A DNA stretch of 47,420 nt, from positions 1-47,420 of the IMG/VR virus record IMGVR_UViG_3300049728_000011. The stretch is one strand, 5' to 3'. A program made the translations under genes and the position numbers. How positions within the stretch are numbered: the stretch's first letter is position 1; each line of letters begins with the position of its first letter. The notes beneath the pieces are model-generated. The model worked only from the letters and a program-made list of their open reading frames with translations. It ran no database searches and had not been told where the DNA came from. This stretch comes from a virus. This document shows, in pieces, positions 264 through 47,420 of the stretch.

Positions 264-337
264 GCAGGTTGTCTAACCGATAACTCGATAGCACGTCACT
301 ATCGCCAATAGGCAATCAATTGCGTTACACTGCGCTT

Positions 338-826
338 ATGGCAAAACTCGAACCCGTCCACGCGTCACTTGTGGCTGATCTGGTCGACCTCATCAATTCG
401 AACCTGACCGATTTGCTCAAAGTTCGCACTGTTACGTGCGGCGACTGCCACGGGCGTGGCACCGTCGGCGGTGAGACACGTTCGGACGGCAGCATTTCTG
501 ACGATGGCACACTGGCGACGTGTGCGACGTGTGGCGGGGTTGGTGCCGTTGAGCGGTATGAGATTGATCATGCCGCACTGAAGACCTACAAATACGGGCG
601 GTACGTAGAGGGCTTCGAAGTCAAGCAAGGTGTTGTCGTGCCTAAATTTCGATCTAAAACAAATGCGTTCAACACGTTAACTAAATTGCTCGGATTCGAT
701 AAAGCCGTGGTCGAGATTTCAAACGGGGCAACTTTGTCGCAAACCATTTCCGAAGAGCAAAAAGCGCAGTACGTCGAACAGTTGAAAGAATTGGCGACCA
801 TGGGCTTGCTGGATGGTGGCAAATGA
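338..826 (+). CDS. terS: Terminase small subunit candidate carrying two CxxCxGxG (DnaJ-type) zinc-finger motifs
   Basis: The ORF is directly upstream of terL and overlaps it by ATGA. The C-terminal KTNAFNTLTKLLGFDK segment resembles TerS proteins. ATG 338 is preferred over the TTG at 320 used by the track. Confidence 0.6.
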   Translation: MAKLEPVHASLVADLVDLINSNLTDLLKVRTVTCGDCHGRGTVGGETRSDGSISDDGTLATCATCGGVGAVERYEIDHAALKTYKYGRYVEGFEVKQGVVVPKFRSKTNAFNTLTKLLGFDKAVVEISNGATLSQTISEEQKAQYVEQLKELATMGLLDGGK

Positions 827-4874: not shown

Positions 4875-5345
4875 CTACACTCGCTCAACCAGTTCACAAA
4901 CCCGGCGCAGTTCGCGTTCCTGCGCAGTTCGCGCCGCAGCCCACGCATCGTCCGCAGCATCCCACGCAGCAGCATTTGCAGTCCCCGCAACATCCGCAGC
5001 AGCCCACGCAGCAACATTTGCAGCCTCAGCAGCAGCCCACGCAGCCTCCGCACCATCACCATTTGCAAAGCGTTCAGCGACGTCAAGCGCGTCAAGGCTG
5101 CGTTGATCTGTCATCAAATGCTGCACCTGCCTAGCGCACCAGACCGCATAGAGCCTAATCTCGCGTTCATGACCTTCTACAGCACGCAAACACCACAACG
5201 CATCCTCTAAACCGTTGCTATCCAAAATCTGAATGATGGAAACGGGTTCGTCATCGGCTTTCGTTTTACCTAGTGTGCGCAATAGCTTTTCCCAGCCATC
5301 AGCGCAAGGGCCGTGCTCTCTTATTTTGTTTAATGTGGTTTTCAT
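4875..5345 (-). CDS. Hypothetical protein with C-terminal degenerate AAW(A/D)AA repeats
   Basis: 156-aa ORF preceded by the conserved AACAGGAGCTAAACAA ribosome-binding sequence. It converges on the head morphogenesis gene. Confidence 0.7.
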   Translation of the reverse strand: MKTTLNKIREHGPCADGWEKLLRTLGKTKADDEPVSIIQILDSNGLEDALWCLRAVEGHEREIRLYAVWCARQVQHLMTDQRSLDALDVAERFANGDGAEAAWAAAEAANVAAWAAADVAGTANAAAWDAADDAWAAARTAQERELRRVCELVERV

Positions 5346-5349
5346 TTGT

Positions 5350-5535
5350 TTAGCTCCTGTTTAATCTTGCTCTTTGCTGCCAACAATCTACGGCATCGTT
5401 CACGGTTTGTTTCGGTAGCGTAGATACCCCGCAACGCAAACAAGCAATATAAAACCAGTATGCGTTAGCGGTAATCTTCGTTTGCAGCTCAGCGCGTCCC
5501 TCGCAAAAAGGGCAAAGTTTAAAATTTGTGTTCAT
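5350..5535 (-). CDS. Lar-like zinc-ribbon protein (restriction-alleviation family candidate)
   Basis: CPFCEG...C..CG...A...W pattern. ATG 5535 overlaps the upstream stop as ATGA. The track starts at a GTG at 5547. Confidence 0.6.
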   Translation of the reverse strand: MNTNFKLCPFCEGRAELQTKITANAYWFYIACLRCGVSTLPKQTVNDAVDCWQQRARLNRS

Positions 5536-5708: not shown

Positions 5709-5740
5709 TTCATTTCTCCGTTTCGTTTGTCGATGTAGGT

Positions 5741-5769
5741 ATATTAAGCTAACGTAAGGGCAAAGTAAA
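5741..5769 (-). promoter_or_regulatory. Sigma70-type promoter TTTACT-17-TAATAT (cassette copy 1)
   Basis: On the minus strand the -35 is at 5764-5769 and the -10 at 5741-5746. It lies inside the cassette 5715-5784. Confidence 0.5.
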
Positions 5770-5783
5770 GACCTTTTCGTAAA

Positions 5784-6044
5784 TCAACGGAAATAGGTAA
5801 TGCCATTGTCGCACGTCCACCCATTTTGGCTAGGGGTTAAACCCGTGACGATTGCTACACTTCCGTTTGTGCCCACACCCACAGCGGTAAAAGCTTGGCT
5901 TTCTTTAACTGTGGTAATTTTGCAGTTGTGCTCAACTTTAAATGTTTGCCATGTTTGCTCTTCCGCAGCCGCTGCCCGCCAGACTACGCAAAATAGCGCC
6001 GCGAATAGCAATGTGATTAGCGTGCCGCCCAGTAGTTGTCCCAT
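5784..6044 (-). CDS. Small membrane-anchored or secreted protein
   Basis: N-terminal hydrophobic segment LLGGTLITLLFAALFCVVW. It has its own promoter-cassette copy and the conserved ribosome-binding sequence. Confidence 0.65.
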   Translation of the reverse strand: MGQLLGGTLITLLFAALFCVVWRAAAAEEQTWQTFKVEHNCKITTVKESQAFTAVGVGTNGSVAIVTGLTPSQNGWTCDNGITYFR

Positions 6045-6076
6045 GTTTAGCTCCTGTTGTGTTTGTCGATGTAGGT

Positions 6077-6105
6077 ATATTAAGCTAACGTAAGGGCAAA
6101 GTAAA
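6077..6105 (-). promoter_or_regulatory. Sigma70-type promoter TTTACT-17-TAATAT (cassette copy 2)
   Basis: On the minus strand the -35 is at 6100-6105 and the -10 at 6077-6082. It lies inside the cassette 6061-6120. Confidence 0.5.
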
Positions 6106-6158
6106 GCCCTTTTCGCAAATTAGGCGATTTAATTTAACTATCGCGTTGCACACTTCGA

Positions 6159-6187
6159 TTGCACAAGCCCAAACAACGCGTTACACT
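6159..6187 (+). promoter_or_regulatory. Promoter candidate TTGCAC-17-TACACT upstream of the scaffold gene
   Basis: The hexamers are at 6159-6164 and 6182-6187. It is divergent from cassette copy 2. A similar GCGTTACACT lies at 323-331 upstream of terS. Confidence 0.4.
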
Positions 6188-8177: not shown

Positions 8178-9188
8178 ATGCGTGACTCGCAACTTATTGC
8201 ACAAATGGCCCGCGCTGGCGTCGTGCTCCCTTCCACTGTGCAGAACATCAGCACCCCGGTAGGCGAGTACGCGCTGGATGCGGCGAGCTTAACTCCGACG
8301 CTGGTTGGTACCCAGAATGCCGGTATCCCTTCGTACCTGACGACTTATGTCGATCCGAAGGTTATCAAAACAATCGTCGCACCAATGGCGGCAGCTACGC
8401 TGGTGGGCGAATCGAAGAAGGGCGACTGGACTACGCTGGTTGCCGCCTTCATTCAAGCCGAGCCTTTGACCGAAGTCGCCACTTACGGCGATTATTCGGC
8501 AGATGGTTCTAGCAACACTAACATTAACTACCCGCAACGCCAGTCCTACTTCTTCCAGACGTGGACACGTTGGGGTGAGCGCGAGTTGGAAATGGCAGGT
8601 GCCGGACGTGTTGATCTGGCTTCGCAACTGAACCTTTCCTCCGCGTTGGGGTTGGCTAAGTTCCTGAACAACTCGTATCTGTACGGCATTTCGGGCTTGC
8701 AAAACTACGGGCTGACTAACGATCCGCGCCTGTCGGCACCTGTTACCGCTTCGGCAAACTGGGCGACTGCCACTCCTGATGCGATTTACAATTCCATCAT
8801 TACGGACTTGTGGAAGCCAATGCAAACGCAATCGCAAGGTGTTATCCGTCAAACCGATGAACTGCGTTTGGGCCTGCCACCTAGTGCTGTCGCGGATATC
8901 AATCGTGTCAACTCCTATGGTCTCGCAGCGGCAAAGCTGCTCAAAGATGCGTGGCCTAAACTGGAGCTGGTTGAAGTGCCGGAATACGACACCGCATCCG
9001 GCCGACTGTTGCAGTTGTGGGCAGTCAAGGTTGAAGGTCAAGAAGTTGCAACTTGCGCTTTCACCGAGAAGATGCGCGCTCACGCTGTCGAGCGTTACTC
9101 TTCGTACTTCCGTCAAAAGAAGTCGGCAGGCACTTGGGGCGCTGTGGTCTTCCGTCCGTTCGCAGTTACGCAAGGTATTGGTTACTGA
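8178..9188 (+). CDS. Major capsid protein
   Basis: 336 aa with an AGGAG ribosome-binding sequence, followed by a strong intrinsic terminator. Position and size fit a major capsid protein. Confidence 0.85.
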   Translation: MRDSQLIAQMARAGVVLPSTVQNISTPVGEYALDAASLTPTLVGTQNAGIPSYLTTYVDPKVIKTIVAPMAAATLVGESKKGDWTTLVAAFIQAEPLTEVATYGDYSADGSSNTNINYPQRQSYFFQTWTRWGERELEMAGAGRVDLASQLNLSSALGLAKFLNNSYLYGISGLQNYGLTNDPRLSAPVTASANWATATPDAIYNSIITDLWKPMQTQSQGVIRQTDELRLGLPPSAVADINRVNSYGLAAAKLLKDAWPKLELVEVPEYDTASGRLLQLWAVKVEGQEVATCAFTEKMRAHAVERYSSYFRQKKSAGTWGAVVFRPFAVTQGIGY

Positions 9189-15017: not shown

Positions 15018-15671
15018 TCATGCCGGGTTCACAGTAGCCCAGTATTCCAGTGCCGCGCTATGCAATGCGCGCTGTGCGTCGTCAAACCCAACTGGCGAAG
15101 ATGTTAGCTCAACTAATGCTCCCGCTGCCGCGTAGGCTGCCATGCCGTGCGCCTGAATGAATGCGCGGCATTGATCCAGGTGCTTTGCGGCGTCGACTAC
15201 ACCCAATTTAGCGGCCAGCTGCGCAATCCACGCCTTCGCTTTGTCGGTTAGCGTTTCGGTTGGCACTGCGTTAAGCTCAACTGGTAGCGTGGACACGACT
15301 TCGGTTAGCGTTTCGACTGGTGTTGCGTTAAGCTCGACTGGCGGCGCGGACACGACTTCGGGTACGACGGTTTCGGCTGGCACGGGCGGCGTAAACGGCC
15401 ATTCCGCAGGCGGGGTTGCTGCTTTCTCCGCTTCGATTTCGGCTTTCGTGCGGCGCTTGCGCTTAGCACCTTCTGGTGCGGTAGTTGCTGTTTCGCTCGG
15501 TTCTGCTGACGGGGCGACCTGTTGTGTCACCTCACCGTCGCAACCGGCAAAAAACTCCCCCGGCGGCGTAGGGCCGGACAACAATTGCTGCAACGCGTAC
15601 TTAGGCTGTTTAAACCGTGCCCAGTCTAAAAACGCGTCGAGTTCGTCCAGCGTGTCAAATGATAGGTGCAT
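15018..15671 (-). CDS. Hypothetical protein containing a 19-aa tandem repeat
   Basis: 217-aa ORF and the last gene of the replication block. It contains 57-nt tandem repeats at 15244-15357. Confidence 0.7.
   Translation of the reverse strand: MHLSFDTLDELDAFLDWARFKQPKYALQQLLSGPTPPGEFFAGCDGEVTQQVAPSAEPSETATTAPEGAKRKRRTKAEIEAEKAATPPAEWPFTPPVPAETVVPEVVSAPPVELNATPVETLTEVVSTLPVELNAVPTETLTDKAKAWIAQLAAKLGVVDAAKHLDQCRAFIQAHGMAAYAAAGALVELTSSPVGFDDAQRALHSAALEYWATVNPA
15244..15357. repeat. Two tandem 57-nt units (plus a partial third) inside CDS 15018-15671
   Basis: Units 15244-15300 and 15301-15357 differ at a few positions. They encode VVS(A/T)(P/L)PVELNA(T/V)P(V/T)ETLT(E/D). Confidence 0.85.
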
Positions 15672-21731: not shown

Positions 21732-21953
21732 TCATTCTGGTTTCTTTGCGAGACCGCGCCAGCCCTGCACAGTGCCGTCGTAGCATTGCCTGCTCCGGTC
21801 TTTCCGAAACATGTAACAAAAGTCTATGGTAGGCATAGTCAGACCCCAATAAAGACCGCTCCAATACGCGTATGCTAAGACATTCCCTTCCACTCGATAT
21901 ACGCCTACGTGGACGGGCGCGACTGACATGGGAAATATTGGTGTTAGTTTCAT
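21732..21953 (-). CDS. Hypothetical small protein
   Basis: 73-aa ORF, ATGA-coupled to the primase-helicase stop. Confidence 0.6.
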   Translation of the reverse strand: MKLTPIFPMSVAPVHVGVYRVEGNVLAYAYWSGLYWGLTMPTIDFCYMFRKDRSRQCYDGTVQGWRGLAKKPE

Positions 21954-24439
21954 TTCCGTAACTCCGAGTTAAAGGGATTGTTAAGTGGAAGTGTAACCAC
22001 TTTGTCGGAAATGTCAATAAATGTTTCTGGTGCGTTGTAGTAGCGCATGCCCATTCCATCCTTGCCAACTGTCCACCCGCGAGCAATTAACCACTGCGAT
22101 ATTTCCTTTGCAGCGAATCTTCGGCCAGTGACCAAGGTGTCGAGTGCTAAGCGCAGCGCTGACGATTGGACGCGGCGTTTCTCATTGAGCGCAATCTGTT
22201 GGCGCAGGATGCCCGGTAGCAGGTCGTCCAAATCAGACAACGGGATACCGTCGCCACGTAACATAGCATCATTGTTGTATTCAAACACGGCGCGGGATGC
22301 TGCATTAGCGATGGCATAGTATTTGCTTTCATCTTCGCAGAAGCATCTCTTTGCCTCAGCCAATATCTGCCGCGCTTCAACCGACCAATTGTCAGACAGA
22401 CTGCCGCGTGCGAACACCGGATAGAAACGCCGGTTGCCAGTTTCGTCCCGATTCGTTTCGTACTTGTTTGCTGTGCCAAACGGCACAAAGCGGCGCGGGT
22501 GCGCTTCTTCGTGCTTCTCGTAGGGTTTGCGGTACACGTCATTATCATCTGTCACCCAGCGCTTGATTTCGTCTGCGTCGCGCTTGTTCAGCCCGGACAT
22601 TTCCGCGAGTTCGCAAATAACAGATCGCGCTGCTGCCATGGACATGCGCCGGTCTTCTGAGAACGCAACAGATGCGGGTGAAGGCGCTCCTAACGCTTTA
22701 GCTATCTCCCCTACGAAACGACTTTTACCAATACCTTGCCGACCTATCAATACAGGGACGACCGGGGCCGTAATGCCGGGTTTGAGCTGGCGCATGATGA
22801 TTGCCGCAAAAAACGCTTTAGAAACGATTGGAAGTGCTGGGGCGGGTTCCGCATCAAACGCGTCAATAAAAACGCTCTGAAGGCGCTCTACGCCATCCCA
22901 AACGGGTAAATTCAACACAGCGTCTTTCCACGGATCGCGCCGGTTCATATCTGCAAGGGCTTCTATTGCTCTTTCGACAATACCCGGCGTGACGTTGGCG
23001 CAGCCGATACGTGATAAGGCTTCGACTAGCCTGCCCACGGTCGGCACGTCTTGCGTGTCGGCCATGGTGGTGCAAACGTCAAAAACAGGAAGTGCATCAA
23101 TTTCGCGCAGCAGCAGTTCCAGACCGTGCATGACGTTCACGAAGGGCGCGGCTTTCTTCGTGGGTTCGGGGTACTCAACCAAGCCGCATAGTTTCTCCGC
23201 GGCTAAGTCCAGTGGGCTAGCAAGGTCGGCAGCAGACGCATTGGTAAATGCAAAGAACTCCTGCAACTTGTGGGACCACACGCCGGGCGTGTCGCCCATA
23301 CGCACAATCTCGGCTTTTGTGGTCAACTTGTCCGACATGTCAGGACGCCATGTATCGAACGGGTCAGCGCAATGCTTGCCCAGTGCGTCAGCAAGGTTTG
23401 AGAGCACTTGTTCAACCGTCACAAACCCGACGCCTGCAACGTACAGGGTCCACGATTTCGGGAGTGCCTTGTCACCTAGCGCACGCGTAGCGAGCAGCCC
23501 GTACCGCTCGCCTTGTTGCGGGTCTAAGCCTGCGGCTATCGCATTTTGTTTTTGATAGTCAATAGCTATCGTCTTGGCTTCCCTGCGTCGCGCATTCTTT
23601 GCGTTGCGCACGGCGGTAGCGAAACGGCGCTCTTCGATTTCACGAACAGCGGGTAGCAACTGCGCGTCAAGCATCCCTTCAGCGGTGCGGTATTTAGTCG
23701 GTGCGCCGAGTACTTGCGGGGGGCGCTCCACAAAACGTTGCTCAAAGGGAACCTCGCGGATCACGTCACCGACCAAGACCGGGTTTGCTTCGAACATCAA
23801 GCGCGAAGGCTGGTAGACCAGTGAATCGGACAATTGCCGGGTAAGTAGCGCGCCTGACTTTGAAATTTTGATATGCCCCCGTCCCGCAGCCCATTGCTCG
23901 ATCTGCATACGCTTCGCTAGCGCGGGGATATCCGTACCCCGCGTGACGGCAACGTAGACGTGTACGCCGCGTAACCCCCGCCCGGCTACGAACGACGACG
24001 ACGAAGGGCGCGCAACCCGGTGAACGTGCGCGAGCCATGGTGAACATGCTTCCAGTGCGTCTAGCACGGCCTCGGGCGATTGAAAGCCATCCCCTTCCAC
24101 GTCTACGTCAATCGGGAACAATGCAGGGCCATAAGGAAACACAAACCCCTCATTGGTGCGCGCTACTGCGTCGTGTCGGAAATCTGCCCCGGCGCGGGTG
24201 GTTAGGAGCGTGTCGCCTACAGCAGGGATACCGCACGTAATCGCTTGGTTCGACGTGAGCAAATCCAGTAACAGCCGCAATGCCGACAAGTTGGGCAGCG
24301 TCACAATACGCGCCGTGCCTTCTGTCATGTGCGCAATGGCCGTGCTTTCTACTGCGTCAGCGTCGTTTCGTTTGAATGTCTTAGTGAGTTCGCAATTCGT
24401 CGCAGTGATCTGCGCGAACTGGATGTTGGTTATCTGCAT
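21950..24439 (-). CDS. Primase-helicase (VirE / D5-like P-loop NTPase with a large N-terminal domain)
   Basis: 829 aa with Walker A LIGRQGIGKS. The C-terminal half resembles VirE-family phage primase-helicases. It is the first gene leftward of hub copy B. Confidence 0.85.
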   Translation of the reverse strand: MQITNIQFAQITATNCELTKTFKRNDADAVESTAIAHMTEGTARIVTLPNLSALRLLLDLLTSNQAITCGIPAVGDTLLTTRAGADFRHDAVARTNEGFVFPYGPALFPIDVDVEGDGFQSPEAVLDALEACSPWLAHVHRVARPSSSSFVAGRGLRGVHVYVAVTRGTDIPALAKRMQIEQWAAGRGHIKISKSGALLTRQLSDSLVYQPSRLMFEANPVLVGDVIREVPFEQRFVERPPQVLGAPTKYRTAEGMLDAQLLPAVREIEERRFATAVRNAKNARRREAKTIAIDYQKQNAIAAGLDPQQGERYGLLATRALGDKALPKSWTLYVAGVGFVTVEQVLSNLADALGKHCADPFDTWRPDMSDKLTTKAEIVRMGDTPGVWSHKLQEFFAFTNASAADLASPLDLAAEKLCGLVEYPEPTKKAAPFVNVMHGLELLLREIDALPVFDVCTTMADTQDVPTVGRLVEALSRIGCANVTPGIVERAIEALADMNRRDPWKDAVLNLPVWDGVERLQSVFIDAFDAEPAPALPIVSKAFFAAIIMRQLKPGITAPVVPVLIGRQGIGKSRFVGEIAKALGAPSPASVAFSEDRRMSMAAARSVICELAEMSGLNKRDADEIKRWVTDDNDVYRKPYEKHEEAHPRRFVPFGTANKYETNRDETGNRRFYPVFARGSLSDNWSVEARQILAEAKRCFCEDESKYYAIANAASRAVFEYNNDAMLRGDGIPLSDLDDLLPGILRQQIALNEKRRVQSSALRLALDTLVTGRRFAAKEISQWLIARGWTVGKDGMGMRYYNAPETFIDISDKVVTLPLNNPFNSELRK

Positions 24440-24554: not shown

Positions 24555-24942
24555 TTGCCGTAAAGAAAGGTACGGAGGGACGGAGTACGGAGGAAGGTTT
24601 TTGAGACCCTGTATACTTTGCGAAAGTAGTAATAAGTACCCTACTTATTACTACTTTCTTCATCCAGTGCTTATATAGTAACTCTGTATTCTCCTTCTGT
24701 ATTTATTATATATTATTAATATTTTATTTAACTACTATACTAAGAAACAGCTACAGAATGCGGGTTGTAGGCTTATTCAAAAGTACGGAGGGAGATAGTT
24801 GTCAAAATACTACTCCCTCCGTACTTCTGTAAAATCCATGTTGCAGCGCACAATAAATAATTAACACTCTGACAACAGAGTACGGAGGGAGAAACCCTCT
24901 CCTGCCGTGCCGGTACGGAAGCTACTGCAAATGAAATAAGTC
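24555..24942. repeat. Hub repeat copy B (388 bp, non-coding) between the primase-helicase start and the nuclease start
   Basis: Direct-orientation copy of 47169-47293 plus 1-263. Boxes lie at 24570-24580, 24585-24595, 24783-24794, 24813-24824 (inverted), 24880-24891 and 24913-24921, and the palindrome stem is 24622-24638 pairing with 24642-24658. Confidence 0.85.
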
Positions 24943-25005
24943 CAAACTTTACTATTCCTTTAGATTGTACTAAGATGAGCGCACCTACAACACAAAGGAG
25001 CAAAC

Positions 25006-26196
25006 ATGTCTATTCCAGTAGCCGTGCATTCGAAGTTGTCATTCTCATCACGCAGGCGTTGGCGTAATTGCCCGGAAAGCGTACAAATGTCGGTCGGTTT
25101 TTCAGATGTATCAGGCACTGCCGCGCTAGAAGGTACGATTGCGCATACCGTTGCCGAATTTTATGTGCGCCAAAAGTTTAGTTTGGAGGGTGCCGCAAGT
25201 GGGGAAGCGCCGCTGCAAGCGCCGCCTGTCGACTTAGACCTGAAGGGTAAATCCGTCGAGGATTGGAACGCAGAACTACGCAAACACGGCAAGGCTTATG
25301 CCGAGTTTATCCAGTCGTTGATCCCCGCAGGCTATCAAGGGTTTGTCACGATTGAAAAGAAAGTAGCCATCCCGTCAATTTCGGATCAGTTGTTCGGTAC
25401 GGCCGATTGCATCGTCTGGGTGCCTGCGCATCATTTACTGATCGTCGTTGATTACAAATACGGGTTTGAAGATGTAGCTTGCGGCGACGCGGAAGACACA
25501 AACCCGCAACTTGCAGCTTATCTTGTCGCCGCTGCCGAAACGTTCGAACTCGACCCTGTACGCATGATGGTTGCAGTATTTCAGCCGCGTCGCGTCATCG
25601 GCATGGCCGGGCAAGCGCTGGAACTCCCCGCCGATTGGCTGCAACGCGAGCGCTTGCTACTAGCGCAAGAAGTGCAGCACACGCAATTACCCGGTGAACC
25701 CGTTGCAGGTGAACATTGCCGTTACTGTCGCGCAAAAGCGGCTTGTCCACGCACCCACGAAGCCGTCGCAGGTGCCCTGAATAATTACGCGGGACTGCGC
25801 AGCCTACACGATATGACCGACGATGAAGTTGTGCAGTTGTGGGCGGCGCGCACCGCATTTAAATCGTTTTGGGAAGACGTCGGACAGCGCATCGAGAACT
25901 TAGCCAAAACGGGCCACCCTGCGATTCAAATTACGACCAAGCCGGGGCGGCGCATGTGGCGGGATGAAAAAGAAGTCGCGCTTACTTTGCTCGCTTACGG
26001 TATGCATGACTTGCTAGAACCTAAAGCATTGTCTGAAGTGTACGACCGCCTGCCCGCAGGATTGCGCGACACGTTGATCAAACGCTCGGCAGATCAAAAG
26101 TCCGTGAAATTGGTTGCGCCCGGTGCGCCTTCTGAAGTTGCAAAATTGTTTAAACAGTACTCAAATATTATTGACCAAAGTGTAAAACTTGATTAA
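25006..26196 (+). CDS. PD-(D/E)XK nuclease, Cas4-like (DUF2800-like), with a four-Cys cluster
   Basis: N-terminal SSRRRWRNCPES and EGTIAHT motifs, and C-terminal CRYCRAKAAC. It is the first gene rightward of hub copy B. Confidence 0.85.
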   Translation: MSIPVAVHSKLSFSSRRRWRNCPESVQMSVGFSDVSGTAALEGTIAHTVAEFYVRQKFSLEGAASGEAPLQAPPVDLDLKGKSVEDWNAELRKHGKAYAEFIQSLIPAGYQGFVTIEKKVAIPSISDQLFGTADCIVWVPAHHLLIVVDYKYGFEDVACGDAEDTNPQLAAYLVAAAETFELDPVRMMVAVFQPRRVIGMAGQALELPADWLQRERLLLAQEVQHTQLPGEPVAGEHCRYCRAKAACPRTHEAVAGALNNYAGLRSLHDMTDDEVVQLWAARTAFKSFWEDVGQRIENLAKTGHPAIQITTKPGRRMWRDEKEVALTLLAYGMHDLLEPKALSEVYDRLPAGLRDTLIKRSADQKSVKLVAPGAPSEVAKLFKQYSNIIDQSVKLD

Positions 26197-27022: not shown

Positions 27023-27051
27023 CGACGTGTATATTTATTTACGAAAAGGGC

Positions 27052-27080
27052 TTTACTTTGCCCTTACGTTAGCTTAATAT
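27052..27080 (+). promoter_or_regulatory. Sigma70-type promoter TTTACT-17-TAATAT (cassette copy 3)
   Basis: The -35 is at 27052-27057 and the -10 at 27075-27080. It lies inside the 70-nt cassette 27037-27106. Confidence 0.5.
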
Positions 27081-27111
27081 ACCTACATCGACAAACGAAA
27101 CGGAGACTGAG

Positions 27112-27706: not shown

Positions 27707-27860
27707 ATGAAAAGAAAAATGGCTTGCAGAAATCAGAATCAAAGATTGGTGCGCGCCTTTACCAGATGGCGGAAGAGTGTTTGATTATGAAGAGGTGTAC
27801 GCATTGGAACGCGAACTGCGCCGGGTTTGTGAACTGGTTGAACAGGAGCTGAACAAATGA
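27707..27860 (+). pseudogene. Small ORF whose RBS-linked ATG is out of frame (+1) with the protein-like reading frame
   Basis: ATG 27707 has GGAG 6 nt upstream and opens a 25-codon frame. The +1 frame, entered after the A-run at 27715-27719, reads KEKWLAEIRIKDW...ERELRRVCELVEQELNK and ends in an ATGA overlap with rusA. Confidence 0.3.
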
Positions 27861-28216
27861 ACACGACTACGCTAACGCTGCCATTCCCTCCCTCACTGAA
27901 CCGGCTTTATCGGGCAGTGTATGGTCGGGTGTTACTGTCCAATGCGGCTAGGGCGTGGTGTATCGCGGCAAAAAACAAGCTGCCATCTGGCAAGGTCGAG
28001 CCATTAACCGGAAGGTTGGACGTTATGATTGAATTGCTGCCGCCGAAGCGCCTGCAAGGCAAAGCGTGGGACATCGCGAACAGAGAGAAAGTGTTGTGTG
28101 ATTTGCTGACCGAACAGCGTATCTGGTTAGATGACTCACAAATTGACCGCATCTTGATCATTAGAGGCGCGCCAGTAAACGAAGGTGCGGCAGTTGTTCA
28201 CATAAGGGAGTTGTAA
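27857..28216 (+). CDS. rusA: RusA-family Holliday junction resolvase
   Basis: Contains LPFPPSLNRLYR, DIANREKVLCDLL and WLDDSQI motifs typical of RusA. 119 aa. Confidence 0.88.
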   Translation: MNTTTLTLPFPPSLNRLYRAVYGRVLLSNAARAWCIAAKNKLPSGKVEPLTGRLDVMIELLPPKRLQGKAWDIANREKVLCDLLTEQRIWLDDSQIDRILIIRGAPVNEGAAVVHIREL

Positions 28217-41423: not shown

Positions 41424-41513
41424 TCAGCCCAGTTTAACCGCTAGCCACGACAGGAGCAAATAGCCGAAAAGCGCTAATGTCAGGTCAGACATGCCTTGTA
41501 AGAACTTCTTCAT
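41424..41513 (-). CDS. Possible 29-aa hydrophobic peptide
   Basis: My own translation gives MKKFLQGMSDLTLALFGYLLLSWLAVKLG. It has a TAATG overlap with the upstream stop and ends 2 nt before the next ATG. Confidence 0.3.
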   Translation of the reverse strand: MKKFLQGMSDLTLALFGYLLLSWLAVKLG

Positions 41514-41794
41514 TATTCAACCCCCGGTTGATCGAGCATCCAATTGATCCAAGCAAGGCGGATCAGCCTACGCTGGCGCTTCGGTCCCGCCCAAAGCGCG
41601 AATGTGTTGCACTCCCAGATTGCGGCGTGCTCTTTAATTCGGAAAGCGGCGTCATGGTACTCAATATCGCTGTAAGGCACGGCCTGACGCTCAACAACTT
41701 GTGCAAGTACGAAAGAAACGGGGCGATCATCGCCGCTTTCGATCAGTTCTCTCGCAGCAACTAGCAACTCTCGCTCAACCTTATTCAGTGCCAT
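41513..41794 (-). CDS. Hypothetical protein, tandem paralogue 2
   Basis: Starts MALNKVERELLVAARELIESG and ends WINWMLDQP. It is a paralogue of 41800-42087. The track start at 41839 is an extension. Confidence 0.65.
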   Translation of the reverse strand: MALNKVERELLVAARELIESGDDRPVSFVLAQVVERQAVPYSDIEYHDAAFRIKEHAAIWECNTFALWAGPKRQRRLIRLAWINWMLDQPGVE

Positions 41795-41799
41795 GACAT

Positions 41800-42087
41800 T
41801 CACTCCATCTCTGGTTGATCGAGCATCCAATCTATCCAAGCCAGACGGTCTTGCTTGACACCACGTTGAGCATCATAACCATTTGCGCGCTGCCAGCTGT
41901 CGAGTGCTATATGCGGCGCTAGCGCTTTGCTAATATAGCGTTCGAGGCGCTTCGCTGCATCCATGTAGTAATATCTGCGACGACTGGTAGCGTTCTGTAT
42001 TGCGTGGCAAATGTAGAATTCTTCACCGCTTTCGATCAGTTCTCTCGCAGCAACTAGCAACTCCCGCTCAATCTTATTCAACGCCAT
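41800..42087 (-). CDS. Hypothetical protein, tandem paralogue 1
   Basis: Starts MALNKIERELLVAARELIESG and ends WIDWMLDQP. The track start at 42144 is an extension. Confidence 0.65.
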   Translation of the reverse strand: MALNKIERELLVAARELIESGEEFYICHAIQNATSRRRYYYMDAAKRLERYISKALAPHIALDSWQRANGYDAQRGVKQDRLAWIDWMLDQPEME

Positions 42088-42149
42088 AACGTTCTCCTGT
42101 TGTAAGTGTGTAGCTATCTTACGAAAACGTAACGGCAATGTCAAGCTAT

Positions 42150-45535: not shown

Positions 45536-45846
45536 TGCATAAAAATGTGTGCGATGTAGCCCAACACTAAGCCTAGCGCGGCTCTGACGACGACAGCGTA
45601 CATAACTTCAACGACGCTACGGCCTGCGTCAACTGCTACGTGCTGCGCAAACAAGAAGCGAAACCCAAGAGCTACGCACCCCGCAATCAAAGGATCGACG
45701 GAAACGGGGTAAAACGGCACCACAAACCATTTGAGATAAAGTGTCAATACCGTGCCGTAGGTAACTACGAAAAGGCCACACACCGCGCCTACGTCGAGCA
45801 ATTCACTAGCGATATACTTAATTCGTGTTTTTGTGGTCGTGTTCAT
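45532..45846 (-). CDS. Multi-pass membrane protein
   Basis: 104 aa with about three hydrophobic segments. It is preceded by the conserved AACAGGAGCTAAACAA ribosome-binding sequence. Confidence 0.65.
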   Translation of the reverse strand: MNTTTKTRIKYIASELLDVGAVCGLFVVTYGTVLTLYLKWFVVPFYPVSVDPLIAGCVALGFRFLFAQHVAVDAGRSVVEVMYAVVVRAALGLVLGYIAHIFMQ

Positions 45847-45850
45847 TTGT

Positions 45851-46024
45851 TTAGCTCCTGTTCAAGAAATCAACGTCTTCGATTTCACCGGGCGCTAATG
45901 CATTCATTGAATCACGTAGCCAACTAACGCGGTTGTAATACGTCTTGTCGCTATAGCCGTTAAGCTCGTCTGGGCCGGTATTTTTCATTTCTAGATATTC
46001 ATCCAGTAAATCAACGAATTTCAT
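45851..46024 (-). CDS. Hypothetical 57-aa protein
   Basis: My own translation gives MKFVDLLDEYLEMKNTGPDELNGYSDKTYYNRVSWLRDSMNALAPGEIEDVDFLNRS. It is preceded by the conserved AACAGGAGCTAAACAA sequence. Confidence 0.5.
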   Translation of the reverse strand: MKFVDLLDEYLEMKNTGPDELNGYSDKTYYNRVSWLRDSMNALAPGEIEDVDFLNRS

Positions 46025-46045
46025 TTGTTTAGCTCCTGTTGTGGT

Positions 46046-46258
46046 TTATGCGCAATAACGAGGAAAATCCAACACAAACGACTTGCAAATTTCTTGCGCT
46101 ACTTCGCTGTGGGCGCTGCTGGCATCTGCTGCGACCATTTCTACAAAGCGCCACAGTAAATCGTCTTCGCATCCGTGTGCCGCCTCAGGGTCACCGTTAC
46201 CGATTAGCGCTATCTTCGCCACTTCCATGTGCGCCTCTTCAATTGTAAGTTGTTCCAT
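46046..46258 (-). CDS. Hypothetical small acidic protein
   Basis: 70-aa ORF and the first gene after the TTGACT-17-TATAGT promoter. It is preceded by the conserved ribosome-binding sequence AACAGGAGCTAAATATG. Confidence 0.6.
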   Translation of the reverse strand: MEQLTIEEAHMEVAKIALIGNGDPEAAHGCEDDLLWRFVEMVAADASSAHSEVAQEICKSFVLDFPRYCA

Positions 46259-46287
46259 ATTTAGCTCCTGTTGTGTTGTATGTAGTA

Positions 46288-46447: not shown

Positions 46448-46744
46448 TTAACTATCCCCATACAACAGCAAGTAGCGCGAACCGAACCCGGTATAAACGG
46501 GGTCCGTAATGCCTTGCAGGTCGGCAAACGCCAGTAGTTGCGGCAAGCCCAGATAACGGTTCGGGTTGATATCGGTGCGGTCGAGGCACAAACGCCCCAG
46601 CGCAACGGATACACCATCGTAAATCACATCAGCAAACAACCCGTAATCGGTCGTCGTCAGCGTAATCTGCGCCGCTGCGCCATCCAGAATCGCCGTGATG
46701 GTCTGGTTAGGTGTGGCAGATAACGGAATAACGACTTGTGTCAT
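46448..46744 (-). CDS. Baseplate/tail small protein candidate
   Basis: 98-aa ORF, ATGA-coupled to the upstream ORF and followed by an intrinsic terminator. Confidence 0.65.
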   Translation of the reverse strand: MTQVVIPLSATPNQTITAILDGAAAQITLTTTDYGLFADVIYDGVSVALGRLCLDRTDINPNRYLGLPQLLAFADLQGITDPVYTGFGSRYLLLYGDS

Positions 46745-47112
46745 AGCAGCACCTGCGAAGAATTGCCGCTGATGTCGGTGGTGGTAATTGCCCCGGAAAC
46801 CGTGCGGTTAGCAAATGTGAAATCGGCGGTAGCTTGCACTACGTCCGAAACTTTCAAGGCCTGTGTCGTGAACGAGTTTTGTACAAGTGTGAGGTTGGGT
46901 GCTTGCCCGAGAATATTGCTGTAGCGTATTCCTTGCGTCGTGTCGTAGTAAAGCTCTCCGTACCATGTCAGGCAGCGCGTAGCTACGTCCTGCGCCATGC
47001 GTATTGCCGGACCTGTCGAGTCGCCCGGCGTAGCGTCGCCCACCGTTGCCCAATTGCCGTATTGGTCAACGGTTAAATCCCATAGCGAATAATCAAGTGC
47101 AACAGTATCCAT
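46741..47112 (-). CDS. Baseplate wedge-like small protein candidate (start uncertain)
   Basis: This is the first gene leftward of hub copy A. The in-frame ATGs are at 47112 and 47142. The track start at 47277 lies inside the hub palindrome and is rejected. Confidence 0.6.
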   Translation of the reverse strand: MDTVALDYSLWDLTVDQYGNWATVGDATPGDSTGPAIRMAQDVATRCLTWYGELYYDTTQGIRYSNILGQAPNLTLVQNSFTTQALKVSDVVQATADFTFANRTVSGAITTTDISGNSSQVLL

Positions 47113-47168: not shown

Positions 47169-47420
47169 TTGCTGTAAAGAAAGGTACGGAGGGACGGAGT
47201 ACGGAGGAAGGTTTTTGAGACCCTGTACACTTTGCGAAAGTAGTAATAAGTACCCTACTTATTACTACTTTCTTCATCCAGTGCTTATATAGTAACTCTG
47301 TATTCTCCTTCTGTATTTATTATATATTATTAATATTTTATTTAACTACTATACTAAGAAACAGCTACAGAATGCGGGTTGTAGGCTTATTCAAAAGTAC
47401 GGAGGGAGATAGTTGTCAAA
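47169..47420. repeat. Hub repeat copy A, left part, plus the 127-nt window overlap
   Basis: Aligns with 24555-24806. Boxes lie at 47184-47194 and 47199-47209, and the palindrome stem is 47236-47252 pairing with 47256-47272. Confidence 0.85.

Follow-up and report, generated by a model that had tools for sequence, protein, structure and literature searches.

Near-identical twin repeats at the two divergent transcription switch points of a Bcep781-like myophage genome: candidate iteron-type replication origins

The DNA analysed here, called the window throughout, is the whole 47,420-nt stretch of the IMG/VR virus record IMGVR_UViG_3300049728_000011 (positions 1 to 47,420), which, judged by its sequence, is the genome of a Bcep781-like myophage. 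It carries two near-identical copies of a non-coding 388-nt repeat, hereafter the hub, one at each of the two points from which transcription diverges. Hubs in twin copies recur across the phage family; comparison of the genomes indicates that the copies undergo concerted evolution and that half-genome inversions have repeatedly had their breakpoints there. The best explanation that we can offer, to which we give an even chance, is that the hubs would act as twin iteron-type replication origins, analogous to those used by the Rep/PriRep initiators of Staphylococcus aureus pathogenicity islands (SaPIs).

Results

Two copies of a 388-nt repeat on one circle

The two copies align without gaps and in direct orientation over 388 nt, with 14 mismatches (96.4% identity), a figure that an earlier note on this DNA, made from the letters alone, had put at about 14 by eye. 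Their positions, together with that of a terminal repeat of the contig, are as follows (no strand is assigned to any of them).

24555 to 24942: hub copy B, between the primase-helicase gene (minus strand) and the exonuclease gene (plus strand), defined by ungapped alignment; direct-repeat families D1 and D2
47169 to 47293: hub copy A, left 125 nt, continuing over the circular junction into 1 to 263
1 to 263: hub copy A, right 263 nt
47294 to 47420: assembly overlap, exact copy of 1 to 127

The local alignment stops at TTGC(C/T)GTAAAG on the left and at GAAATAAGTC on the right, and the start-to-start distances between the copies are 24,679 and 22,614 nt; both the edges and the spacings had been correctly read from the sequence. 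In the numbering of copy B, the mismatches fall at 24559, 24614, 24807, 24833, 24834, 24857, 24858, 24865, 24869, 24896-24898, 24901 and 24909. As the earlier note had remarked, none lies inside the five GTACGGAGGGA-type boxes or the palindrome with a 17-bp stem, and a single one (24909) lies inside the 14-bp CCGT(A/G)CCGGTACGG palindrome.

Since window positions 47294-47420 repeat positions 1-127 exactly, the unique circle measures 47,293 bp, and the 127-nt terminal repeat is the overlap of a circular assembly and not a biological feature. This overlap is part of a longer stretch, 192 nt, over which the two copies do not differ and whose final base is also that of the contig, so that the pairing of flanks cannot be proved from the window contig alone. 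An assembly artefact, either a repeat joined wrongly or a pair of separate circles, each of about 23 kb, with one hub in common, would draw its support from precisely this point, the identical stretch being longer than the overlap. Three close relatives settle the pairing, as their longest exact stretches shared between copies measure only 83, 118 and 79 nt, both hubs stand on one contig in each, and the genes follow the same order as in the window (primase, hub, exonuclease ... baseplate, hub, terS). The same layout is also seen in 17 relatives with a long hub, complete cultured isolates among them, and either half of the genome alone would be without essential modules. We regard an artefact as scarcely credible.

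Anatomy of the hub

The features recognised in copy B, with their counterparts in copy A, are these.

24570 to 24580, plus strand: box 1, GTACGGAGGGA, putative iteron (copy A 47184-47194)
24585 to 24595, plus strand: box 2, GTACGGAGGAA (copy A 47199-47209)
24603 to 24616, no strand: GAGACCCTGTATAC motif, noticed by eye, without statistics
24622 to 24658, no strand: perfect palindrome with a 17-bp stem and a 3-nt loop, inverted-repeat pair I4 (copy A 47236-47272)
24687 to 24746, no strand: AT-rich centre, 15% GC, candidate DNA-unwinding element (copy A 8-67)
24783 to 24793, plus strand: box 3 (copy A 104-114)
24814 to 24824, minus strand: box 4, inverted, forming 13-nt inverted arms with box 3, pair I9 (copy A 135-145)
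24880 to 24890, plus strand: box 5 (copy A 201-211)
24906 to 24919, no strand: 14-bp palindrome CCGTGCCGGTACGG (copy A 227-240, in the perfect form CCGTACCGGTACGG)

The GTACGGAGGGA box has 12 matches at up to one mismatch, where 0.28 would be expected, and all of them are located in the hubs except for one match with one mismatch at 8326. An extra ACGGAG core is found between boxes 1 and 2, at 24580, and a further GTACGG core lies in the 14-bp palindrome; in all, six ACGGAG cores are present per hub, three to the left and three to the right of the centre of 15% GC. Only one of the right-hand boxes of the window is inverted (24814-24824), the order on that side being plus, minus, plus. The centre itself is the least stable 60-nt duplex of the entire genome, at -58.6 kcal/mol against a mean of -88.1 (standard deviation 5.7), the next lowest value being -66.5. 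The boxes, nearly exclusive to the hubs, flank the least stable 60 nt of the genome.

The palindrome with the 17-bp stem folds as DNA at -13.9 kcal/mol (z = -9.8). In the related genome L006, the 17-bp stem is retained and its middle sequence differs through compensatory changes; on this comparison, the palindrome beside the hub centre is conserved through such changes. Motifs like GAGACCCTGTATAC were seen by eye at the same position in the Ralstonia phage PQ43W (GAGAGGCTCTTATAC) and in the Burkholderia phage Bcep781 (GAGACCTCTGTAAAC). An Rfam scan of hub B and its flanks returned sub-threshold hairpin matches only.

A candidate initiator beside hub B

The gene nearest to hub B on its left encodes a protein whose relationships bear directly on the possible function of the hub.

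21950 to 24439, minus strand: primase-helicase, 829 aa, candidate initiator; VapE-like ATPase at residues 513-715, predicted winged helix at residues 736-802

It starts 115 nt from hub B, and hub A lies about 23 kb from it. The Pfam VapE-like_dom is matched at 4.5e-43 over residues 513-715, and the sole sequence match in the PDB is 7PDS, the complex of a SaPI Rep with double-stranded DNA (phmmer E = 7.7e-28). In an AlphaFold model of residues 480-829 (predicted local distance difference test score 82.6), the C-terminal domain has the winged-helix order H-S-H-H-S-wing-S, the model elements H257-272, E277-279, H280-289, H298-307, E311-314 and E320-323 corresponding to protein residues 736-802. 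The best Foldseek matches of this model are the six chains of 7PDS (E = 2e-15, about 370 columns of the 350-residue query, including the C-terminal domain), followed by NrS-1, MCM, and African swine fever virus and poxvirus primase-helicases. From sequence and modelled structure, the protein is thus a homologue of the self-loading initiator-helicases Rep/PriRep of staphylococcal SaPIs. The SaPI Reps are self-loading helicase-initiators, and their C-terminal winged helix reads iterons of 5-6 nt (PMC9371898). SaPI origins, which lie next to rep, consist of 6-12 iterons around an AT-rich centre, at least two per side and in opposite directions, and one Rep hexamer is thought to load on each side (PMC9371898).

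The wing of the predicted winged helix goes with the hub box in several lineages, a TVGKDG motif occurring with the TACGG box and PGADG with ACTGACG. A table of identities compiled ortholog by ortholog revealed no protein that clearly tracks box identity.

Twin hubs across the family and their concerted evolution

Among 50,697 deposited phages, BLASTN with the hub and with half of the genome gave zero matches, and relatives were located via proteins only. The primase of the window shares 73% identity with that of PQ43W, 57% with those of the Burkholderia phages Bcep781, Bcep43, Bcep1 and BcepNY3, and 48-52% with those of 36 Xanthomonas records (OP2-like Tsukubavirus, Beograduvirus and others); the genomes of these named relatives measure about 45-48 kb. 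Headful packaging has been reported for Beograduvirus, a genus of the Bcep781-like family (PMC13190192), a mode in keeping with circular permutation of the genome. The Ralstonia phages Jenny, Adzire, Simangalove, Bakoly, Elie, Sarlave and RS-CA1 (44-46 kb) encode an exonuclease 33-35% identical to that of the window; none of them falls within the primase filter of E <= 1e-100.

Both switch regions were available for 18 related genomes, and 17 of these share between their two regions a hub of 133-502 nt at 84-100% identity. The exception is 3300044735_000030, in which about 50 nt are common to the two switch regions. The check proposed in the earlier note, whether relatives keep the two-copy layout, therefore came out in its favour, albeit through relatives found by their proteins. 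Representative hubs are listed below.

PQ43W: 300 nt at 100% plus more (457 nt exact in all), direct
Bcep781: about 377 nt at 92-98%, direct
phiXaf18: 197 nt at 99%, inverted
XPP6: 323 nt at 96%, inverted
XapPhi2: 273 nt at 98.5%, direct
PhiXhv-18: 239 nt at 96.7%, direct
IMG/VR genomes: 133-502 nt at 84-98%, both orientations

The twin-hub layout is present in cultured isolates deposited as complete, namely Bcep781, Bcep1, Bcep43, PQ43W and five Xanthomonas phages. An exact-pattern search for a second hub found one copy each in the contigs L006 and L007; the second switch region of L006 lies outside the retrieved sequence, and in the L007 genome about 50 nt are common to the two switch regions.

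The plan of the hub is constant across lineages and the box sequence differs: TACGGAGG is found in the window, PQ43W and L006, AGGTGGGAT in L007, ACAGACGA in L012, TGACAGAT in Bcep781, ACTGACG in 3300027857 and ACAGAGG in L105 and L112. The arrays that flank the AT-rich centre are usually opposed, clearly so in PQ43W, L012, XPP6 and 3300011530 and partially in Bcep781, L006 and L007. The shortest hubs (170 nt in L012, 197 nt in phiXaf18) are near-palindromes in which two arrays face each other across the AT-rich centre.

Three genomes, the window and two from IMG/VR, have primases that are 98-99% identical to one another, and in these the left hub edge differs between genomes and is the same in both copies of each: TTGC(T/C)GTAAAGAAAGG in the window, TTGCTTCAAAGAAATG in both copies of 3300021076 and TTGCTACTAAGCAAGG in both copies of 3300029982. 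Box 2 likewise reads GGAGGCAGG in both copies of 3300029982. As such genome-specific variants are common to both copies, sequence exchange between the copies must outpace the divergence of these genomes. The boxes and a centre of about 170 nt are nearly invariant over the nine copies examined. Taken from these alignments, the two hub copies evolve in concert and under the same constraint, and the earlier proposal that selection maintains both is supported.

The boundaries of the hub are less uniform. In the close relative IMGVR_UViG_3300029982_000034 (L005/L016), about 570 additional nt separate hub B from the exonuclease gene, and homology of copy B to copy A ends after GGTACGGAAGC, so that the right boundary of the hub is a site of insertions. 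In L096, L099, L112 and phiXaf18 (L018 28636-28956, gp39), an extra small gene stands between the hub and the primase-helicase gene, and direct adjacency of the two is hence not universal.

No repeat is annotated at the hubs in the three complete GenBank records examined (PQ43W, Bcep781 and phiXaf18). The repeats go unmentioned in the PQ43W, XapPhi and Beograduvirus papers and in two reviews of Burkholderia cepacia complex phages, a set that lies apart from the Bcep781 genome paper (Summer et al. 2006, J Bacteriol 188:255). Within the literature and records examined, we found neither description nor annotation of the twin hubs as a family-wide feature.

Gene blocks, half-genome inversions and alternative roles

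The genome consists of four gene blocks, each transcribed away from a hub. The Head block comprises the gene in the terS position, terL, portal and others; the Prim block, the primase-helicase, a helicase and PolA; the Exo block, a PD-(D/E)XK exonuclease, a Gp2.5-like annealing protein and RusA; and the Tail block, baseplate, tape measure, fibres and lysis genes. Besides the primase-helicase gene, the genes that adjoin the hubs are the following.

25006 to 26196, plus strand: PD-(D/E)XK (Cas4-like) exonuclease, first gene right of hub B
46741 to 47112, minus strand: baseplate wedge gene, first gene left of hub A
338 to 826, plus strand: terS-position gene (phrog_16968), followed by terL; first gene right of hub A, with a weak DnaJ-type zinc-finger match

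The placement of the hubs at both divergent switch points and the flanking gene calls of the earlier note (primase-helicase from 24439, exonuclease from 25006, baseplate from 47112, terS position from 338) were correct. Its statement that one hub heads the replication genes and the other the virion genes describes the arrangement of the window and does not extend to Bcep781 and all Xanthomonas phages, in which each hub heads one virion and one replication block.

The two convergent pairs, Exo facing Tail and Head facing Prim, are constant, and the two arcs occur in both relative orientations. In Type I genomes (the window, PQ43W and about 24 IMG/VR loci), one hub separates exonuclease from primase and the other baseplate from terS; in Type II genomes (all Burkholderia phages, all 36 Xanthomonas records and about 18 IMG/VR loci), terS is opposite exonuclease and baseplate opposite primase. 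On a neighbour-joining tree of terL, at least 5 switches of the arc are required (bootstrap range 4-6; about 15 with random labels). Read from this tree, the half-genome arc between the hubs has been flipped at least 4-6 times in the family. About 12 genomes have direct hub copies and six have inverted ones (phiXaf18, KPhi1, XPP6 and three metagenomic genomes); adjacency and orientation are found in all four combinations, and the blocks are paired by hub side in all three possible ways. Because the hubs are the only long repeats at block boundaries, they mark, in these comparisons, the breakpoints of the recurrent half-genome inversions.

The earlier note had reasoned that the persistence of direct repeats, which could split the genome into two circles by recombination, suggests selection. 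The part concerning selection is upheld, and the argument from orientation was too narrow, the copies being inverted in six relatives: near-identity is conserved and orientation is variable.

The same inversions are the main point in favour of a site-specific recombination site, serving the resolution of concatemers or dimers or a programmed inversion of the arc, and the palindromes in the hubs would suit such a role. Against it, the annotations of PQ43W, Bcep781 and phiXaf18 include neither a serine nor a tyrosine recombinase, none was found among the scanned ORFs of the window, and general homologous recombination between long repeats suffices to explain rare flips. Moreover, in all 36 deposited Xanthomonas genomes primase and exonuclease are on the same strand, which corresponds to one arc orientation, and about 19 of these come from two genera in which every genome checked (XPP6; phiXaf18 and KPhi1) has inverted hubs. 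From this single orientation it follows that inversion of the arc is rare, and not programmed, and we consider a dedicated recombination site very improbable. Two related ideas were rejected. Free flip-flop isomerisation in inverted-hub lineages finds no support in the deposited Xanthomonas genomes, whose single isomer is indirect evidence, and recombination via the 17-bp palindrome would produce arrangements L-P-L' and R'-P-R, where direct L-P-R is observed.

The hub might instead be a pac (packaging) region read by the terS-position protein, with the second copy a spare or secondary pac. One hub adjoins the terS-position gene in every genome, the protein has a weak zinc-finger motif and could, on that sequence match, bind DNA, and the headful mode described for Beograduvirus (PMC13190192) would be compatible with a pac site. 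In no genome does the other hub lie near terminase genes, a second pac site at half a genome's distance would serve no obvious purpose, the identity of terS-position proteins to that of the window is flat (about 57-70%) whatever the box, and the plan of iterons, AT-rich centre and palindrome, together with the neighbouring Rep-like helicase, points to replication. We judge a pac function improbable.

The terS-position gene is itself of uncertain identity, small terminase being assigned by position alone. The family phrog_16968 is of unknown function, the match is a weak one to the DnaJ-type CXXCXGXG zinc finger, and the gene is labelled 'anti-TRAP protein' in phiXaf18 (L018 77-562) and 'integrase' in XPP6 (L020 624-1091).

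Promoter-like motifs in the unique flanks

Two promoter-like motifs were recognised next to the hubs, both of them outside the repeat.

24948 to 24976, plus strand: sigma-70-like TTTACT-N17-TAAGAT, 6 nt beyond the right edge of hub B
322 to 331, plus strand: GCGTTACACT, 7 nt before the start codon of the terS-position gene, outside hub A

The pattern TTTACT-N17-TAANAT has four matches in the window against 0.06 expected, the others being at 5741, 6077 and 27052, and the match beside hub B is likely, from its sequence, to be the promoter of the exonuclease block. Exact copies of GCGTTACACT number two, one before the terS-position gene and the other at 6178-6187 before the head-protease operon. 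The motif also precedes the terS-position gene in PQ43W and Bcep781 and is possibly a late-promoter element. A generic scan of the hub for promoters and terminators gave two promoter-like matches against 1.6 expected. The unique flanks contain, on the same side of both copies, one early sigma-70-like motif and one late motif, and the shared core is therefore not simply an early or late promoter. The earlier view that the same control DNA serves different gene sets is weakened as regards a promoter role.

A different account would make the boxes operators for a phage transcription regulator, and the hub a duplicated regulatory region that switches four operons from early to late, a genome-wide lambda OL/OR with no origin. 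Every operon indeed begins at a hub, lineage-specific boxes would be expected of a co-evolving regulator, and the inverted pair formed by boxes 3 and 4 is typical of dimer operators; in addition, relatives annotate small helix-turn-helix proteins (PQ43W_26 and phiXaf18 gp58) and a sigma-70 region-4 domain protein (phiXaf18 gp60), and the covariation of the primase C-terminal domain with the box is unconvincing. However, no regulator was found in the window, where the small ORFs near the primase gene have no Pfam or PHROG DNA-binding match, the hub core has no fixed relation to early or late blocks, all pairings being found, and the recognisable promoter-like motifs are outside the repeat. Nor would an operator need a 60-nt segment of 15% GC, five standard deviations below the mean stability of the genome and flanked by repeat arrays. 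Operators without an origin function are the main rival reading, which on balance we think rather unlikely.

Several other repeats were observed in the window. An element of 65-73 nt occurs three times at 94-97% identity (5715-5787 and 6056-6120 on the plus strand, 27034-27106 inverted) and carries a sigma-70-like TTTACT-N17-TAATAT on one strand; by sequence, it probably serves small internal operons as a repeated promoter cassette of the early or middle class. A perfect inverted repeat of 36 nt, TCAACCAGTTCACAAACCCGGCGCAGTTCGCGTTCC, has its arms at 4885-4920 and 27806-27841, 22.9 kb apart, both near these cassettes. Several small genes on both strands share a repeated context of ribosome-binding site and start codon (AACAGGAGCTAAACAAATGAA and variants; families D3, D4 and I5), with sites of this type at 5335-5364, 6032-6061, 45836-45865, 46014-46043, 46248-46277 and 27838-27870. 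Two tandem 57-nt units, 84% identical, are located at 15244-15357 within the ORF 15018-15671, which has a weak match to a tail-protein PHROG. The adjacent minus-strand ORFs 41513-41839 and 41800-42144 are paralogues, with stretches of 45-75 nt that are 82-89% identical at an offset of about 290 nt (D6 and D11), which indicates, at the level of sequence, a local tandem gene duplication in the tail block. In PQ43W (L001 40361-40960 and 1190-1530), long in-frame arrays of 15-nt and 9-12-nt repeats are found inside PQ43W_58 and PQ43W_3, with no counterpart in the repeat list of the window.

Discussion

The hubs as candidate twin origins

Three candidate roles had been put forward for the hub. A resolution site is not favoured, no recombinase having been found, and twin origins have the most support, from the Rep-like primase-helicase with its predicted winged helix and from a hub centre that is the least stable DNA of the genome. 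That the same plan, with a lineage-specific box, recurs across the family, that concerted evolution places both copies under one constraint, and that the hub core would work regardless of the adjoining blocks, all three block pairings occurring in nature, are further points, all comparative, in support of origins.

As we envisage it by analogy with the SaPI Reps, the 829-aa primase-helicase would recognise the GTACGGAGGGA boxes through its C-terminal winged helix, and hexamers would assemble on both sides of the centre of 15% GC and melt it. The divergent promoters in the unique flanks may aid opening through the negative supercoiling that they would introduce into the hub. Forks that start from both hubs would then be co-directional with transcription throughout the genome, because all four blocks are transcribed away from the two hubs. 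The copies would be kept near-identical by gene conversion, presumably using the phage exonuclease, annealing protein and RusA, and a rare crossover within a hub or next to it would turn round an arc or the hub itself. GC skew was dropped as a discriminator between the models, since the coding strand is the proposed leading strand everywhere.

A stronger form of this proposal, which we put forward as a reasonable though doubtful possibility, is that both hubs are active origins. The genome would then have four replichores, each co-directional with its operon, and the hubs, homogenised by gene conversion, would be interchangeable docking points. If any block can be attached to any side of a hub, half-genome inversions and hub flips would recur without loss of function. 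A crossover between direct repeats would yield two half-genome circles, each with an origin, as possible replicating intermediates.

Several points weigh against origins. Binding of the boxes by the primase-helicase, and firing at one or both hubs, are inferred by analogy. The right-side boxes of the window mostly share the direction of the left-side ones, so that the opposite directions seen in SaPI origins are only partly reproduced. The hub lies upstream of the primase-helicase gene, where the SaPI origin lies downstream of rep, and hub A does not adjoin the primase gene at all. Xanthomonas hubs carry few exact repeated cores, and the approximately 50 nt shared by the switch regions of 3300044735_000030 imply that near-identity is not obligatory. 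Pairs of phages that share a box have no excess identity over the whole C-terminal domain (mean residual -1.2 versus 0.1), and L105 and L112 have the same ACAGAGG box and different wings. Finally, a regulator-binding role would account for position and boxes just as well, and a hub could serve in both roles at once.

If the twin-origin proposal is true, the family, which includes Burkholderia Bcep781-like phages, Xanthomonas Kantovirinae, Ralstonia phage PQ43W and many soil metagenome phages, would offer a culturable model for the co-direction of replication and transcription on the scale of a whole genome. It would also be a model for gene conversion that keeps duplicated cis elements identical, and for cis elements that license large inversions, with at least 4-6 independent flips and both repeat orientations. 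The combination of a SaPI-type self-loading initiator with an iteron origin would be extended from Gram-positive satellites to virulent myophages of Proteobacteria. On the practical side, the repeats (up to 457 identical nt in PQ43W) are liable to mislead both the assembly of short reads and any taxonomy based on synteny, which matters to biocontrol groups, and they are obvious sites to test in phage engineering.

Comparison with known systems

The earlier note did not recognise the hub as belonging to any described system; this no longer stands, as its plan matches that of SaPI Rep-type origins (PMC9371898). Likenesses to the replication module of SaPIs and other phage-inducible chromosomal islands include the homologous ATPase (phmmer), the fold match over ATPase and C-terminal domain (Foldseek), the predicted C-terminal winged helix, and short, lineage-specific boxes that bracket an AT-rich centre beside the initiator gene. 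In contrast to a SaPI, which has one origin, the phage has two origin-like copies about 180 degrees apart; its hub is upstream of the initiator gene and between divergent operons, whereas the SaPI origin is downstream; its boxes measure 8-11 nt around a 6-nt core, most of them in the same direction in the window, and are accompanied by a long conserved palindrome; and the element belongs to a virulent 47-kb myophage and not to a satellite, with binding being a prediction. By analogy, we would say that the hub works like a SaPI Rep-type iteron origin and partly qualifies as one.

Single-copy and repeat-based systems elsewhere offer looser parallels. The control region of papillomaviruses and polyomaviruses likewise arranges initiator-helicase sites around AT-rich DNA in the interval from which early and late units diverge, and uses a self-loading helicase of the superfamily 3 type, but it is single-copy and eukaryotic, and its origin-binding domain is unrelated, so that the analogy is one of design only. 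In the chloroplast inverted repeat, the 2-micron plasmid and the herpesvirus segments, two long repeats split the genome into two arcs, as the hubs do in a family where both orientations are found; unlike those isomerising genomes, the window has direct repeats, and the inverted-hub phages (phiXaf18, KPhi1 and XPP6) are represented by one isomer in the deposited genomes, which points to rare evolutionary flips and not to an equilibrium. The operator regions OL and OR of lambda are a few kb apart and flank repressor and antirepressor genes, whereas the hubs are about 23 kb apart and no repressor-like gene was found beside either of them.

Closer in layout are two phages with more than one origin site. 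Bacillus phage SPP1 has dual origins, oriL and oriR, with G38P as initiator, and phage P4 has a two-site origin, ori and crr, with an initiator that is a primase-helicase with a C-terminal winged-helix origin-binding domain. Both resemble the present case in having two separated cis regions with the same initiator-binding repeats by AT-rich DNA, represented here by 388-nt copies that lie 22.6 and 24.7 kb apart and do not differ in their boxes. They differ in that, to our knowledge, the SPP1 and P4 sites are not near-identical copies of 200-500 nt, are not placed at both divergent switch points and are known neither as inversion breakpoints nor for concerted evolution, and G38P is unrelated to the candidate initiator of the window. 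What the hubs would add to SaPI, SPP1 and P4 is the presence of near-identical copies at both switch points, which evolve in concert, are found in either orientation and coincide with the breakpoints of inversions.

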